This document shows, piece by piece, positions 3,413 to 11,125 of a DNA stretch of 18,746 bases (positions are counted from its first letter, which is position 1; each line of letters starts with the position of its first letter). The notes below the pieces were generated by a model that saw nothing but the letters and a program-made list of their open reading frames with translations, searched no databases and was not told the DNA's origin. The stretch comes from a phage. Made by a program: the position numbers and the translations under genes. The stretch is taken from the NCBI GenBank assembly GCA_019844455.1, contig GCA_019844455.1_3938.2, one strand, 5' to 3'.

Positions 3413-4522
3413 ATGACTACTAAAACTAAAGCACAGATTGACGCAGAAATTTACAAACTGGTTAAAGAAGGTAAGCTGACTAAAACAGCTATTGCACAGA
3501 AATTTAATACTTCAACCCGTTCAGTCGGTCGTGCTGTAGAGCGTCACGAAGCAACCTTAAAAGGGAATAAGAAGGCAACTTCTACACCAGCTACGAAGAC
3601 TTTGAAACAAGTTGCTAAGACCTTTAAGAAGAAAGCTGACAAACCAGTTGAAAAGGTCGTTAAAGATGTTGTACAGAAAGCTCCAGTAAATAAACTGCAC
3701 GAAGCTATGCAGAAAGATGACAAGATTGAGTACATGATTACTGGTGATTCTGTAATTATGACTTATGGTTCAGAATCTGAAATTGTTGAGTCTACTCATC
3801 CGAACTATCAAGAGATTGTAGTTCATGTTGTGAAAGGTGAGTTCAAGAAAGCATTTGAACTGATGAACATTCGTAAGTCTATCGAAAACTTCACTCAGGG
3901 TGCTATCACAATCAAAGGCGACAAGCTATTCTACGGTGCTGTTGAGATGCGTTCTACTCTGGTTGACCGTATTCTTCACATGATGAAAACTGGTGATAAA
4001 GGTTTTGAACGACTTGTAATGTTCTTCGAAAAACTGATGGAAAACCCATCTAAAGATTCTGTAGAACAACTTTGGGGATTTGTATCTCACCTTGATGTTG
4101 AAATTGATGAAGAAGGTTACATCATTGGTTGGAAGAAAGTCTCTACTCGTGAAGGCAAGCTGGTTGACTCTCACACCTACAAAGTGCCTAATGATTTGGG
4201 TAACATTGTAGAAATGCCACGTTGGATGGTTGATAATAACCGTAACGTAACTTGCTCTCAAGGTCTTCATGTTGGTGCTTGGGATTATGTTCGTTGCTTC
4301 TCAGGTGATACAATCCTGAAGGTTCGCGTACATCCACGAGATGTTGTATCTGTTCCAACTGATTACAACGATATGAAGATGCGTTCCTCTCGTTATGAAG
4401 TTGCAGCAATCGTTGATAATCAACGTAAAGTGCTGGAAGCATGGGACGGTAAGACTGAAGCTTTGCATGTCATCGTTGGCACTGCTGGTGAACTCATCTC
4501 TCAACGTAAACGTGAAATCTAA
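3413..4522 (+). CDS. rIIB: rIIB-like protein
   Basis: 369-aa ORF, RBS gagag 7 nt upstream. The C-terminal two-thirds parallels T4 rIIB as recalled: ...MRSTLVDRIL..., ...ENPSKDSVEQLWGFV..., ...CSQGLHVGAW..., KVRVHPRDVVSVPTDYNDMKMRSSRYEV (T4: KVKVHPRDVVSIPIDYNDAKMR). Confidence 0.9.
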   Translation: MTTKTKAQIDAEIYKLVKEGKLTKTAIAQKFNTSTRSVGRAVERHEATLKGNKKATSTPATKTLKQVAKTFKKKADKPVEKVVKDVVQKAPVNKLHEAMQKDDKIEYMITGDSVIMTYGSESEIVESTHPNYQEIVVHVVKGEFKKAFELMNIRKSIENFTQGAITIKGDKLFYGAVEMRSTLVDRILHMMKTGDKGFERLVMFFEKLMENPSKDSVEQLWGFVSHLDVEIDEEGYIIGWKKVSTREGKLVDSHTYKVPNDLGNIVEMPRWMVDNNRNVTCSQGLHVGAWDYVRCFSGDTILKVRVHPRDVVSVPTDYNDMKMRSSRYEVAAIVDNQRKVLEAWDGKTEALHVIVGTAGELISQRKREI

Positions 4523-6331: not shown

Positions 6332-6353
6332 AGGCTCCTTCGGGAGCCTTTTT
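6332..6353 (+). terminator. rho-independent terminator
   Basis: Same stem as at 406 (aggctcc/ggagcct, here with a ttcg loop), followed by ttttt; sits 12 nt after the stop at 6320. Confidence 0.65.
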
Positions 6354-6372
6354 CATTTCAGGAGATTGTTAA

Positions 6373-7981: not shown

Positions 7982-8174
7982 CTTCTGCAAAGACTGTTCT
8001 ATCGAAATGTTCGGACGTGATACAGGTGACTTAAAAGGTCTTATCACTGAAGATGACTTTAAAGCTGGTTATGCAATGCCAGTAATCTGTGAAGGTTGTG
8101 GGTGCATCTGGGTAGACCACGAAGGACAACGTGTAAAACCTTCAGAAGACAAAGAATCTTGGGAGAGATGTTAA
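7974..8174 (+). CDS. small Cys-rich putative zinc-binding protein (about 66 aa)
   Basis: The track gives 7884. The in-frame ATG at 7974 follows RBS aagagg (7958-7963). Product MADFCKDCSIEMF...VICEGCGCIW carries CxxC and CxxCxC motifs. Confidence 0.45.
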   Translation: MADFCKDCSIEMFGRDTGDLKGLITEDDFKAGYAMPVICEGCGCIWVDHEGQRVKPSEDKESWERC

Positions 8175-8960
8175 ATGGGTATTGTAAAAATAATTAATGG
8201 TGATATCTTTGCCGCATTTGATAAAGGTAAGTTTGACATCATCGGTCACGGTTGCAACTGTATGAATTTAATGGGTGCAGGTATCGCTGACAAGATTTCT
8301 AAACTTTACCCAAAAGCATATGAGACCGATACAGAAGTTTATCTGTATGCAGGTGGTATAGGACACAAACCCTGTGAAAATTTACTGGGTAATTTCTCTG
8401 TAGCACGTTTAAAACAAGGTCGTATAGCTAACCTTTACACTCAGCTTAAGACTGGTAAAGATGCCCGATACAGTGCTTTAGAGTCATCTTTGAAACAGCT
8501 TAACAGATACTGTGAAGTTAATCAGTTGAAGAAGGTTGGTTTACCTATGATTGGTGCAGGTATCGGTGGACTTGAACCTCAAGCCGTCACAGTTATCATT
8601 AATCAGGTGATGAAGAGTGTAGATGTTTATCTGTATGTCTACGAAGGAGAGATGTACCACAAGTTACGCTCAGGTTGGAATAACTACTGTGAACCAGAAT
8701 ACTTTGCAGGTGTAGTAACGTTCAAAGATGATACAGTTACCCTCTTCAGACGAAGAAAAGGTAAGATACATCAAAGTAACCCTCCGGTTGAGAAGATGTC
8801 TCTAAGTAACGCTCTAGTTACCCACCTGTCGAAGAGCAATCACAGGATAGCCGTAACATTTGGCAGTGATGCAGATACATATATTTATGCAAGAACTGAT
8901 GAGGATATCGAGACGGTCTTCTCTTCACCAGAAGTTACCTTCTTAGACGCAAAGAACTAA
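8175..8960 (+). CDS. macro-domain (ADP-ribose binding/processing) protein with a C-terminal extension of about 100 aa
   Basis: IINGDIF...DIIGHGCNCMNLMGAGIADKI parallels the macrodomain core (recalled from YmdB as VQGDIT...VNAANpSLmGGGGVDGAIH). Later LPMIGAGIGG parallels FPAISTGVYG, and YLYVYE parallels YFVCYD. RBS gggagag upstream. Confidence 0.65.
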   Translation: MGIVKIINGDIFAAFDKGKFDIIGHGCNCMNLMGAGIADKISKLYPKAYETDTEVYLYAGGIGHKPCENLLGNFSVARLKQGRIANLYTQLKTGKDARYSALESSLKQLNRYCEVNQLKKVGLPMIGAGIGGLEPQAVTVIINQVMKSVDVYLYVYEGEMYHKLRSGWNNYCEPEYFAGVVTFKDDTVTLFRRRKGKIHQSNPPVEKMSLSNALVTHLSKSNHRIAVTFGSDADTYIYARTDEDIETVFSSPEVTFLDAKN

Positions 8961-8990
8961 GAAACTTTGTATAATATTCACAATAGACTA

Positions 8991-9034
8991 AGCCTTCCTT
9001 ATCTGGTAAATTTTTCAGGTAAGGAGGGCTTTTT
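8991..9034 (+). terminator. possible terminator (long-loop hairpin plus T-run)
   Basis: agccttcctta (8991-9001) pairs with taaggagggct (9020-9030) with one mismatch and an 18-nt loop, then ttttt. Weaker than the other terminators. Confidence 0.3.
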
Positions 9035-9213
9035 CATTTCAGGATTGTGCAGGTAGAGTTCTGTAGAGAAATCTGTAGAGAGAATTTTGAACTCCAAAGA
9101 GAAAATTCATTTTCAAACTGTGCAGGTAATCTCCAAAGAGCTTTTTCATTTTCAAAACGTGCAGACCCCGCTCAGGTCGGGCAAGAAAAATCATTTTAGA
9201 ATCGTGCAGGTAG
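9035..9213. repeat. four iteron-like direct repeats (about 21 bp, core GTGCAG)
   Basis: catttcaggattgtgcaggta (9035-9055), cattttcaaactgtgcaggta (9108-9128), cattttcaaaacgtgcaga (9147-9165), cattttagaatcgtgcaggtagg (9192-9213). Non-coding leader between a terminator and a strong promoter. Confidence 0.5.
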
Positions 9214-9236
9214 GTTTTTATAGAGAGCCAGACCAA

Positions 9237-9267
9237 CCCCTCTCCCCCTCTTACTCCACCTCTCCCC
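9237..9267. repeat. polypyrimidine (CT-rich) tract
   Basis: cccctctccccctcttactccacctctcccc is 31 nt with only two purines on the plus strand. Confidence 0.5.
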
Positions 9268-9366
9268 AAAAGTCAAGAGAAAAATTTGTAGCTGGTTGAA
9301 AAATAATTCTTGATTTGTGTTCTGTTTTGTGGTAGTCGTGCGCGCCCGTTCATTTCCCAACCTTAC

Positions 9367-9417
9367 AAAAAATATTTAATAAAAACCGTTGACACGCCAA
9401 ACAAGTTTACGTACTAT
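9367..9417 (+). promoter_or_regulatory. strong sigma70-type early promoter with an A/T-rich UP-like element; heads the small-gene array
   Basis: A/T block aaaaaatatttaataaaaa (9367-9385), TTGACA 9389-9394, 17-nt spacer, TACTAT 9412-9417. It is followed by a 5'-UTR hairpin gggc-aagcaa-gccc (9429-9442) and the shared RBS region (cctaaactggagaatcgaaaATG). Confidence 0.6.
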
Positions 9418-9466
9418 TTGCATCAGACGGGCAAGCAAGCCCACTTCCTAAACTGGAGAATCGAAA

Positions 9467-9673
9467 ATGCTTTATAGTCGTGAATTGATGGTTACAACTA
9501 ACGTTAACACAAAGGTAAAACGTTTTTACATGCAAGTATGTGGCGCATGGTCTAGAATATCAGAGGCTGACTATTGCAACTATGTAGAAACAGCTATAAA
9601 CTCTAATTGCTACCTTACAAGAAATACAAGAAAGTACATAAGACAGACAGCAGTTTATTACTACGATGCCTAA
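9467..9673 (+). CDS. hypothetical small protein (68 aa)
   Basis: First ORF after the strong promoter; preceded by the shared RBS region. No recognisable motif. Confidence 0.5.
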   Translation: MLYSRELMVTTNVNTKVKRFYMQVCGAWSRISEADYCNYVETAINSNCYLTRNTRKYIRQTAVYYYDA

Positions 9674-9681
9674 TAAAGTAC

Positions 9682-9764
9682 TTTACAAGGGGCTTAAAAG
9701 CTGATATCTTAAGCCCCAAATAAAGAGCTTTACCAAATCAACCCTTAAACTAGGAGATTCAAAA
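9682..9764 (+). promoter_or_regulatory. intergenic module type A, copy 1 (PeSL-like: -35, stem-loop, -10, shared RBS region)
   Basis: TTTACA 9682-9687; 9-bp perfect stem ggggcttaa/ttaagcccc (9689-9697 / 9709-9717); TATCTT 9705-9710 (17-nt spacer); then agataaagagctttacc...cttaaactaggagattcaaaaATG. No T-run after the hairpin. Confidence 0.5.
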
Positions 9765-10145
9765 ATGGCATATCGTGCACCTAAATTCATCAACAAAGAC
9801 AACTTTCGCAACGCACTGGAGAAGTCACTTGATGAGAATTTTAAAGGTAACGTTATTGTTGTTCACTCGTTTAATTTTAAGTATGATATCAATGGGAATA
9901 AAATTAACCATTACACGGCGACAATGCTAGATGGTACTCTTTCAAGTGAAAAAGCCATTTTACATGCACTTGCTGGACGTGGTAAAAACCTGATAAGATG
10001 CGATAAGAGACGTTATCAGGGTGGCGCATATGGTTACGATGATGCTGTTTATCATCTTGAAAATATGGGCTATCAAGTAGAAAAAGCTGGAGTGTCTCAA
10101 ATAATCGGTAGTGATGGTTATGTAACAATCTTCAAAATTAACTGA
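9765..10145 (+). CDS. hypothetical protein (126 aa)
   Basis: ORF preceded by the shared RBS region (GGAG 8 nt upstream). The 3' end (...aaaattaacTGA) runs into the next module. Confidence 0.55.
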   Translation: MAYRAPKFINKDNFRNALEKSLDENFKGNVIVVHSFNFKYDINGNKINHYTATMLDGTLSSEKAILHALAGRGKNLIRCDKRRYQGGAYGYDDAVYHLENMGYQVEKAGVSQIIGSDGYVTIFKIN

Positions 10146-10153
10146 TAAAGTAC

Positions 10154-10233
10154 TTTACAAGGGGCTTATAGTTCGATAAAGTAAGCCCCAGATAAAGAGC
10201 TTTACCACTAAATCCTAAATTGGAGATTCAAAA
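10154..10233 (+). promoter_or_regulatory. intergenic module type A, copy 2
   Basis: TTTACA 10154-10159; stem ggggctta/taagcccc (10161-10168 / 10182-10189) with 13-nt loop; then cagataaagagctttaccactaaatcctaaattggagattcaaaaATG. Confidence 0.5.
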
Positions 10234-10524
10234 ATGGCTACTATCAAAAACGTTGTAATTCCTGTAAAAACTCGTGATGACGCTCGCATCATGGCGAAAA
10301 AGTTAGGCGGGAAAGTGGTTGACAACGGAAAACAATCTGCTGTAAGATGGGGTGTGAAGGCTGATAAACAGTTGAAGTTAAAAAATTCACCAATAAATCT
10401 TTTTACATGTGTAAACACTATCGGAAAGACAAATGTATACACGAAAAAGGCATATATTAGACGCGTAGCCTTAACATCTCCAATTCGTACAATGAGAGGT
10501 TATGCAAAGCTGAAAATTAACTGA
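10234..10524 (+). CDS. hypothetical basic protein (96 aa, K/R-rich)
   Basis: ORF with the shared RBS region. Lys/Arg-rich throughout; its C-terminal codons (...aaaattaacTGA) match those of the 9765 gene. Confidence 0.55.
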   Translation: MATIKNVVIPVKTRDDARIMAKKLGGKVVDNGKQSAVRWGVKADKQLKLKNSPINLFTCVNTIGKTNVYTKKAYIRRVALTSPIRTMRGYAKLKIN

Positions 10525-10532
10525 TAAAGTAC

Positions 10533-10612
10533 TTTACAAGGGGCTTAAAAGTTGGTATCTTAAGCCCCAGATAAAGAGCTTTACCACTAAATCCTAAACT
10601 GGAGATTCAAAA
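10533..10612 (+). promoter_or_regulatory. intergenic module type A, copy 3
   Basis: TTTACA 10533-10538; stem ggggcttaa/ttaagcccc (10540-10548 / 10560-10568); TATCTT 10556-10561 (17-nt spacer). Near-identical over about 90 nt to the copy at 12196-12282. Confidence 0.5.
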
Positions 10613-11125
10613 ATGAAAACTGTAGACGCTACCTTTGAAGTTGTAAAAGAAAAATTCACCATTATCTATGAAGCTGTTAATTGCTTTGAAGCAAGCCATA
10701 ATCTTGATAATTGGGAATTTACAGATGACCATCAAGGCGGTGTGACTGTTAAAAATCCTAACTACCAGCATAATGAATTTAAATATGCAATCCCTTTACA
10801 TTACAGCCTTAAACAGCTTTCAAGTGACTATGCAAAACAAGGACGGGAAAATCCATCAAAAGAGGCTTACACAAGCTTACAGAAAGAACTAGAAAGAGAT
10901 TTAGAGGCTTCAGAGTATAACATTGCCGCGAAAGTTGTAGATGCAAATGGCAACACGGTTTTAGATAGTTTTTATATTGGTTACGCTTTCGACTGGTGCT
11001 ATAGTGACGGCGATGATTTAGAGGATAGGCTAAAAGAGGAAGTGAACAATTCAGACGCAGAATCTGAAGTATTAGAACGCTTGGAAGCATTAAAAGATTC
11101 AGTGATGAATATCTTTAAGGACTAA
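10613..11125 (+). CDS. hypothetical acidic protein (170 aa)
   Basis: ORF with the shared RBS region. Strongly Asp/Glu-rich, especially toward the C-terminus. Confidence 0.55.
   Translation: MKTVDATFEVVKEKFTIIYEAVNCFEASHNLDNWEFTDDHQGGVTVKNPNYQHNEFKYAIPLHYSLKQLSSDYAKQGRENPSKEAYTSLQKELERDLEASEYNIAAKVVDANGNTVLDSFYIGYAFDWCYSDGDDLEDRLKEEVNNSDAESEVLERLEALKDSVMNIFKD

Follow-up and report, generated by a model that had tools for sequence, protein, structure and literature searches.

Main

Between the macro-domain gene and the first small gene of a Felix-O1-like phage lies a 506-bp gap that is a cis-acting DNA element, not a gene and not a structured RNA, and that carries four co-oriented repeats under strong purifying selection. 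We describe this element in an 18,746-nt stretch of phage DNA (contig GCA_019844455.1_3938.2 of NCBI GenBank assembly GCA_019844455.1; here "the window"), which belongs to Felixounavirus: over bases 8600-9900 it shares 99.1% identity with Escherichia coli O157 typing phage 1 (TP1, KP869100) and approximately 80-96% with more than 200 other Felixounavirus records. The gap runs from the macro-domain gene (8175-8960) to a 68-aa gene (9467-9673; match to phrog_5293), which is the first of a long small-gene array. From the pattern of conservation we infer that the repeats are DNA sites for a sequence-specific binding protein of the phage, and we tentatively favour an origin-type element as their most likely function. 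Felix-O1-like phages serve Salmonella diagnostics, biocontrol and therapy, and the repeat array bears on features of theirs that are unsettled, namely the replication origin, the timing of transcription and the genome ends.

Results

The pattern TCATTTYMRRANYGTGCAG has four matches, all on the plus strand, at 9034, 9107, 9146 and 9191, where shuffled sequences give 0.01. The repeat core is TCATTT-N7-GTGCAG, and a repeat finder extended units 2-4 to approximately 34-37 nt, the full unit being about 36 nt with the form CTCCAAAGAG-N4-TCATTTT-N6-GTGCAGGTA. A preliminary description of the window had reported four copies of a repeat of roughly 21 bp with a GTGCAG core; the copies and the core stand, the unit length does not, and all four elements noted in that description lie within one base of where it placed them. 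Repeat 1 has the core TCATTTCAGGATTGTGCAGGTA (9034-9055) and is followed by a spacer (9055-9090) that contains the 12-bp mini-repeats AGAGTTCTGTAG, AGAAATCTGTAG and AGAGAATTTTGA. The full units of repeats 2, 3 and 4 are CTCCAAAGAGAAAATTCATTTTCAAACTGTGCAGGTA (9092-9128), CTCCAAAGAGCTTTTTCATTTTCAAAACGTGCAG (9131-9164) and GTCGGGCAAGAAAAATCATTTTAGAATCGTGCAGGTA (9176-9212), the last two being separated by a variable spacer, ACCCCGCTCAG (9165-9175), which reads AGAAAAATCAG or ATAAAAATCAG in relatives. Start-to-start spacing in the window is 73, 39 and 45 nt, and the spacers between Felixounavirus units measure 2-40 nt. The sites are non-palindromic and all share one orientation; within one phage the units are only 63-89% alike, and these copy-to-copy differences are themselves conserved. 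When the whole 88.5-kb TP1 genome was searched on both strands with up to three mismatches, the full motif was found at this locus only, which therefore rules out a dispersed promoter or terminator motif, including a promoter motif for a phage-modified polymerase. Two GTGCAGGTA half-sites inside the macro gene (8275 and 8554) were also rejected: both encode G-A-G-I glycine motifs, and Kolesnikvirus has GGTGCTGGTAT there.

Nucleotide diversity, computed on 17 distinct Felixounavirus sequences, is 0.012 in repeat 2, 0.024 in repeat 3 and 0.019 in repeat 4. The adjacent macro gene has values of 0.137 (codon position 3) and 0.019 (codon position 2), so that repeats 2-4 vary 6-11-fold less than the third codon positions. 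The spacer between repeats 3 and 4 reaches 0.30 and the CT-tract segment 0.35. The repeats are therefore constrained like second codon positions, and the DNA between them drifts freely.

The same layout, a terminator followed by 3-6 repeats, a C-rich tract and a strong promoter, occurs in Felixounavirus, Suspvirus, Mooglevirus and Kolesnikvirus and in two distant contigs from public read sets, and every relative examined, down to other genera, carries the repeats. Mooglevirus and Suspvirus, whose macro proteins are 63-69% identical to that of the window, have four units close in sequence to those of the window, then the C-rich tract and the promoter. In Kolesnikvirus (Erwinia phages) the order is macro gene, terminator, four units, C-rich tract CCCACCCTCCCCTCTACC, and an A/T block with a TTGACT-17-TATATT promoter; the units are contiguous, at a spacing of 37/37/39 nt, with the core TCATTTT-N6-GTGCATAG. 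Between Erwinia and Escherichia phages the repeats (the repeat 4 unit, 9176-9212) are the only intergenic part that BLAST still aligns. The two distant contigs encode macro proteins 33-35% identical to the window's, and in each the array comes after a terminator, 0.7-2 kb beyond the macro gene, with four units GGACTAACGAGCTTTTTCATTCTGAAACTGTGCAGG in one (L085) and six units GRCACGAGRC..TCATWT-N7-GTGCATA in the other (L084). The lineage of Si3 and one IMG/VR contig has three units. Unit spacing is 39/45 nt in Felixounavirus, 41/45 nt in Mooglevirus, 91/35/45 nt in L085 and 37-47 nt in L084. Across 33 units the consensus is.gtC..gagag..tttTCATTTt.AAattGTGCAg.ta., with TCAT and GTGCA invariant or nearly so and a weaker third block approximately 13 bp upstream. 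The 3' block follows the lineage, being GTGCAGGTA in Felixounavirus, Mooglevirus and Suspvirus and GTGCATAG/A in Kolesnikvirus and L084, and the upstream block differs too. A pattern scan of metagenomes gave 110 matching stretches (80 returned as loci), all of them unrelated satellites apart from Felixounavirus- and Suspvirus-type contigs, and a three-copy scan of viral contigs found Ounavirinae and coding Ser/Ala repeats only. The array is the most strongly conserved non-coding sequence found in the region, unique in the genome and common to at least four genera.

The absence of a credible open reading frame (ORF) from the gap, as claimed in the preliminary description, is borne out by comparison with relatives. 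GenBank relatives mostly have no annotation in the 506 bp; small coding sequences (CDSs) are annotated at the locus in some records (wV8 gene 13, FO1a gp14 and Mordin gp014), and the few calls differ in strand, frame and position. Stop-free frames run over the repeats on both strands, and the repeat unit itself has no stops. No reading frame is kept across relatives: unit spacings are not constant modulo 3, which is why we regard the region as non-coding, and wV8 has a 2-bp deletion inside repeat 3. The two ORFs that overlap the repeats (9039-9269, minus strand; 9087-9299, plus strand), whose conservation and translation had been named as one point that could overturn the description, are not conserved. 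All three codon positions are equally invariant in the repeats, the spacers are variable, and the best PHROG match in the intergenic region is marginal (E=0.0099).

At the RNA level, Rfam 15 has no match in the region at the gathering score. Relaxing the threshold to E<=10 yields eight matches; the terminator hairpin accounts for seven, and the remaining one, at 9042-9161, scores 13 bits (E=3) against the model of a Coxiella small RNA. Folding compared with shuffled sequences, on both strands of 9032-9270 and 9262-9390, gave no signal (z = 0.04, 0.17, 0.98 and -0.12).

Upstream of the repeats, a terminator scan located the intrinsic terminator of the macro-domain gene (8990-9031, plus strand; 17-pair stem, 8-nt loop), an element absent from the earlier account. 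Its T-tract TTTTTCATTTC (9030-9040) doubles as the 5' half of repeat 1, its stem is maintained through base changes in Mooglevirus and Kolesnikvirus, and GenBank relatives also annotate a terminator there.

Downstream of the repeats lies a C-rich pyrimidine tract, CCCCTCTCCCCCTCTTACTCCACCTCTCCCC (9237-9267, plus strand), with 21 C and no G and with the mirror-symmetric arms CCCCTCTCC and CCTCTCCCC. No other 31-mer in the window contains as many pyrimidines, and none in the window or in the 88.5-kb TP1 genome is as rich in C (G on the other strand). It had been reported as a 31-nt polypyrimidine tract, which is correct as to location and not as to strict composition, two of its bases being A. 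C-rich tracts also follow the repeats in Mooglevirus, Suspvirus and Kolesnikvirus, four genera in all. The segment 9213-9267 has two alleles, a CT-rich one in the window, wV8, Mooglevirus, Suspvirus and Kolesnikvirus, and in many Felixounaviruses an alternative, GGTGGGTGCAGGTGGGGATGTCGCCATTTCTCACAAGGCTACCACATCTG, which duplicates the GTGCAGGT core. The alternative is unrelated to the CT tract and starts G-rich on the same strand (GGTGGGTGCAGGTGGGG). The role of the tract, be it the triplex formation or single-strand-specific protein binding proposed earlier or another, is therefore not essential in that genus. As to H-DNA, the tract is 29/31 pyrimidine with 9-nt mirror arms, two A interruptions and, in many Felixounaviruses, a non-mirror allele in its place.

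A conserved block (9268-9345; diversity 0.057) comes next. It is kept in three genera, is not recognisable in Kolesnikvirus, and has two short inverted arms, AGTCAA (9271-9276), which on the minus strand reads as the -35-like hexamer TTGACT, and TCTTGA (9308-9313). The strong promoter of the preliminary description is present, a sigma-70-type TTGACA-17-TACTAT (9389-9417, plus strand) that serves the first gene of the small-gene array, as is its A/T-rich upstream block (9366-9388, plus strand), which resembles an UP element. This promoter is the joint-best sigma-70 match in 8000-11000 (10/12), and relatives keep its hexamers as -35 TTGAC and -10 TAnTAT. The 5' leader (9429-9469, plus strand) has a hairpin, GGGC-AAGCAA-GCCC (9429-9442), a ribosome-binding site (RBS), GGAG (9455-9458), and the ATG (9467) of the 68-aa gene. 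Relatives with an alternative promoter-leader allele have a different hairpin, GGGGAGGG-AATGA-CCTTCCCC, at the position of 9429-9442, and the comparison suggests that the leader of the first small gene carries a conserved 5' stem-loop. The gaps of the small-gene array (for example, 9679-9765) hold a repeated module of their own, with a TTTACA-17-TATCTT promoter-like sequence, an overlapping hairpin GGGGCTTAAAAG...CTTAAGCCCC and the common RBS AAACTAGGAGATTCAAAAATG; this module before each small gene corresponds to the 57-bp direct repeats reported for Felix O1.

A genome terminus or pac site at the array was suspected, given that the Andreotti record and four IMG/VR or Logan contigs end in the region. 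Two IMG/VR contigs stop at the identical CT-tract base (window equivalent 9257), beyond which one runs into Nextera adapter; a third IMG/VR contig stops approximately 40 nt later, a Logan contig breaks off behind the -35 hexamer, and the Andreotti record (GenBank) starts at window equivalent 9234. A terminus was rejected: the Pr103Blw terminal repeat lies at 15929-16510, 6.7 kb away, that of UAB_Phi87 was mapped by the tRNA cluster, and both ends of the Andreotti record, which lacks approximately 5 kb of the small-gene array, are artefactual fold-back duplications. The breakpoints fall at or near points of divergence, either the two alleles of the CT tract or the promoter region, where partial BLAST alignments break off (query positions 394, 417 and 471), and from their position the contig ends are read as assembly breaks at mosaic junctions in mixed populations. 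The ending or chimeric assemblies are IMG/VR 3300045988_003641, _009833, _001525 and _004180, Logan SRR18206799_3024, and MN850610; two end at the same CT-tract base and two others carry a Nextera adapter at the end. The array marks a boundary of sequence exchange among relatives, which is relevant to phage engineering and to assembly from mixed samples.

Published terminal repeats are in conflict: that of UAB_Phi87 (JN225449; 608 bp, Bal31 and run-off sequencing) lies by the tRNA cluster, in contrast to that of Pr103Blw (MW481326; 581 bp, PhageTerm). Nothing in the window matches the beginning of the UAB_Phi87 record. Between convergent gene blocks of the window, 15438-17155 is a 1.7-kb ORF-free region with CTTGTTA(A/G) / TGTTAAG motifs at an 11-12-bp period in both orientations; it is probably the terminal-repeat and packaging region, and is a candidate origin. 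Outside the window, a second large non-coding gap follows the DNA ligase gene in KP869100 (68,779-69,365), where a TTGACA promoter precedes two 77-nt GT-rich direct repeats; it holds the 31-mers that, on this strand of the genome, are second in G content only to the complement of the CT tract.

Discussion

The repeats are best read as protein-binding DNA because they are co-oriented sites at a single locus, conserved in sequence but not in spacing, in a region with no coding and no RNA structure. The binding partner is probably phage-encoded, given that the third and upstream blocks change with the phage lineage although the hosts are all Enterobacterales. The preliminary description had suggested an operator for a phage or host regulator, or an origin. 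The class of binding array is the best supported part of that suggestion; a host regulator is disfavoured by the 3' block, which changes with phage genus, and the geometry is not that of a classical operator, the repeats ending approximately 180 bp upstream of the promoter and directly behind a terminator.

For the function of the array an origin-type element is our leading candidate, short of an even chance, because a unique iteron-like array lies in a non-coding island of 0.5-0.8 kb in a compact genome, with a promoter, an A/T block and a strand-biased tract alongside. A phage protein would bind the four co-oriented sites (3-6 in relatives), each of approximately 35 bp with three blocks about 13 bp apart (..C..GAGAG.. 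/ TCATTT / GTGCA(G/T)), and would load or position the replication machinery of the phage, with opening or priming perhaps assisted by the strong promoter 180 bp downstream, by its A/T block and by the strand-biased C-rich tract. In L085 the non-coding island (4200-4440, upstream of the four-unit array) holds the further repeat families CAGAAACGC (three to four copies) and TACGAAGCTGGG (three copies), and GTAGAG..TCTGTAGAGA, akin to the mini-repeats at 9055-9090, follows its last repeat. Origins often resemble such an island with several repeat families.

Several observations weigh against an origin. Ten neighbouring genes and ten genes of the replication module were searched with Pfam; no initiator-type domain (Rep, O or other) turned up, the only hits being a macro domain, a T7 gp4-like primase-helicase (Toprim+DnaB_C), a dNMP kinase and a 99-aa HTH_3 protein. 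The units are unevenly spaced, at 35-47 nt in general and at 73-91 nt behind the first. A distance of 155 bp separates repeat 4 from the A/T block, which also serves as the upstream element of the promoter and does not rank with the window's most A/T-rich 40-mers, and many Felixounaviruses do without the CT tract, having in its place the unrelated allele that starts G-rich. GC skew follows transcription with no origin signal, and a bidirectional origin would change its magnitude at the locus in the opposite sense. The repeat-dense non-coding region 15438-17155 is an equally good origin candidate, and a search of 8 kb surrounding the corresponding region in Pectobacterium phage Arno18 did not recover the array. 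Known sites were compared with the units by eye. The units of Kolesnikvirus and L084 match the DnaA box TTATNCACA at 7-9 of 9 positions; those of Felixounavirus, Mooglevirus and L085 match at only 6/9, and DnaA is therefore not the common partner. Partial likenesses to sigma-E, sigma-54, ops, IHF and EcoKI-type bipartite sites failed across units or lineages.

The main rival, which we consider possible and somewhat less probable, is that the array is a transcriptional boundary or regulatory element, on which a phage protein acts as a roadblock, an insulator or a remote operator. It would keep the small-gene array apart from the transcription unit that runs from rII to the macro gene and govern the promoter that opens the small-gene array, with the C-rich, G-poor tract as a rut-like Rho-loading site that catches read-through. 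In every lineage the array stands after an intrinsic terminator and before a strong sigma-70 promoter, oriented with transcription, as a boundary would be. Rho prefers C-rich, G-poor sequence, which is the composition of 9237-9267. The phage encodes small HTH proteins, and the mechanism of Felix O1 transcription timing is unknown (PMC3185647). However, the last repeat ends at 9212, 180 bp upstream of the -35 hexamer (9389), and the promoter itself is free of overlap; the small-gene array has more than ten promoters of this kind that lack such sites. The lack of palindromes in the sites, the swap of the CT tract for an allele that begins G-rich on the same strand, and the failure to identify a regulator count against the boundary as well.

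We regard it as unlikely that the repeats act as an RNA decoy, a transcript that soaks up a host RNA-binding factor or a ToxN/AbiQ-type III toxin in the manner of the phiTE pseudo-ToxI. The 35-47-nt units, near-contiguous at 37/37/39 in Kolesnikvirus, do resemble the 34-45-nt arrays of type III antitoxins (PMC5086642, PMC3475682), the neighbouring gene encodes a DarG/TARG1-like macrodomain with a likely counter-defence role, and the minus-strand TTGACT hexamer (the complement of 9271-9276) is conserved in three genera. However, on the plus strand a strong terminator and no promoter stands immediately upstream of the repeats, and no terminator-like site follows them; on the minus strand the candidate -10 is poor (TAAGAG) and the hexamer is not recognisable in Kolesnikvirus. 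The 63-89% likeness among units contrasts with the near-identical repeats of type III antitoxins, the Felixounavirus units have variable spacers, only those of Kolesnikvirus being contiguous, and there is neither an antitoxin match in Rfam (E<=10) nor a folding signal. Searches of 72,556 plasmids and 5,426 E. coli genomes yielded no comparable array, and a pattern scan of 185,579 species genomes (GTDB) gave seven unrelated tandem repeats, none with a toxN-like neighbour. The closest of these is in the metagenome-assembled genome RUG13901 of an uncultured proteobacterium (L040 6040-6170), where a 35-nt tandem, TTCATTTTTACACCGTGCAGACCGAGGGATGACTA, matches phage repeat 3 at 20/23 positions. It sits in a repeated intergenic element by GIY-YIG and YbaK-like genes, with no toxin gene nearby, and the resemblance is probably due to chance.

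A landmark for DNA entry or packaging is improbable too. By analogy with T5, the array would be a polar stop or pause between a first-entering terminal segment of small early genes and the rest of the genome. Stated more broadly, it could be a polar landmark, bound by a phage protein, between a first-expressed terminal block of approximately 7 kb and the rest, acting as an entry stop or pause or as a barrier to forks or transcription; we give this version little credence as well. In T5 approximately 8% of the genome enters in a first step, and the region of the boundary is rich in repeats. If true, the array would be the Felix-O1 counterpart of the T5 first-step-transfer boundary, for which we know of no molecular basis. 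The geometry fits: the 581-bp terminal repeat of Pr103Blw, called by PhageTerm, is at window 15929-16510 (PMC8303462), and the array lies approximately 7.3 kb (about 8% of the genome) from that end, with only small promoter-rich genes between. Against it, the argument is one of geometry only, and the end position is disputed, the 608-bp terminal repeat of UAB_Phi87 having been mapped experimentally elsewhere, by the tRNA cluster; the array is neither inside nor adjacent to either reported terminal repeat. To our knowledge two-step entry has never been reported for Felix-O1-like phages, which also counts against a landmark.

Very improbable, finally, are a small repeat-containing protein, for which the stop-free frames and scattered CDS annotations speak and the shifting frames, discordant calls, marginal PHROG match and uniform codon-position invariance beside variable spacers speak against, and neutral leftovers of a duplicated terminator-tail and RBS module, which are not expected to stay at the diversity of the repeats or to persist across genera. 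The terminator tail and RBS upstream of gene 6373 (GGGAGCCTTTTTCATTTCAGGAGATTGTTAAATG, 6332-6372) are nearly identical to repeat 1 with its terminator (GGAGGGCTTTTTCATTTCAGGATTGTGCAGG, 9018-9052), the likeness to the 5' half of repeat 1 lying at 6349-6372, and by this resemblance a generic terminator-tail module may be the source of the 5' half of the unit.

At approximately 180 bp, the array is a small, concrete target for seeking a DNA-binding protein and a cis-acting function. We found no description of it in the literature searched, and the main text of the PhageMaP (Bas63) and CRISPRi-ART (SUSP1) papers gives no readout for this intergenic region. The direct repeats already reported for Felix O1 and wV8 (57-bp, 39-bp, DR_1 to DR_9) share its genome region and its class, short intergenic direct repeats. 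They are promoter-terminator modules between small genes, such as window 9679-9735 (CTTTACAAGGGGCTTAAAAG...) (PMC3185647), and the four imperfect repeats of the array are not among them.

With Tus-Ter and Sal-box/TTF-I arrays the element has in common several co-oriented, non-palindromic sites downstream of a transcription unit, at a gene-block boundary; it differs in having no similarity to Ter sites and no identified Tus- or RTP-like protein. With type III antitoxin arrays and their phage mimic (ToxI, antiQ, CptI; phiTE pseudo-ToxI, PMC3475682) it shares an intergenic, non-coding set of direct repeats (35-47 nt here) in a lytic phage, next to a probable counter-defence gene. In contrast to them, the units of the array are not near-identical and have spacers in most genera, a terminator instead of a promoter lies upstream and none after, no similar array was found in the bacteria or plasmids scanned, and no toxin partner is known.

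In form the array is also like iteron origins (lambda ori with its four O-protein sites, P1 oriR, T4 oriE, and the plasmids F, R6K and RK2), with which it shares a single locus of 3-6 direct repeats, a core of approximately 19-22 bp, a non-coding setting with an active promoter alongside and an A/T block in the vicinity, and conservation beyond that of its surroundings. Classical iterons lie approximately 22 nt apart, whereas the spacing here is 35-47 nt, and 73-91 nt after the first unit. In addition, every unit carries an upstream block that varies with lineage, 155 bp lie between the array and the A/T block, and only the Kolesnikvirus units approach a DnaA box in sequence (8/9). Hence, the array has at least three direct sites at a single locus and resembles iteron arrays, but it lacks their regular spacing and no initiator gene was recognised among the genes searched, so we do not file it in that family.

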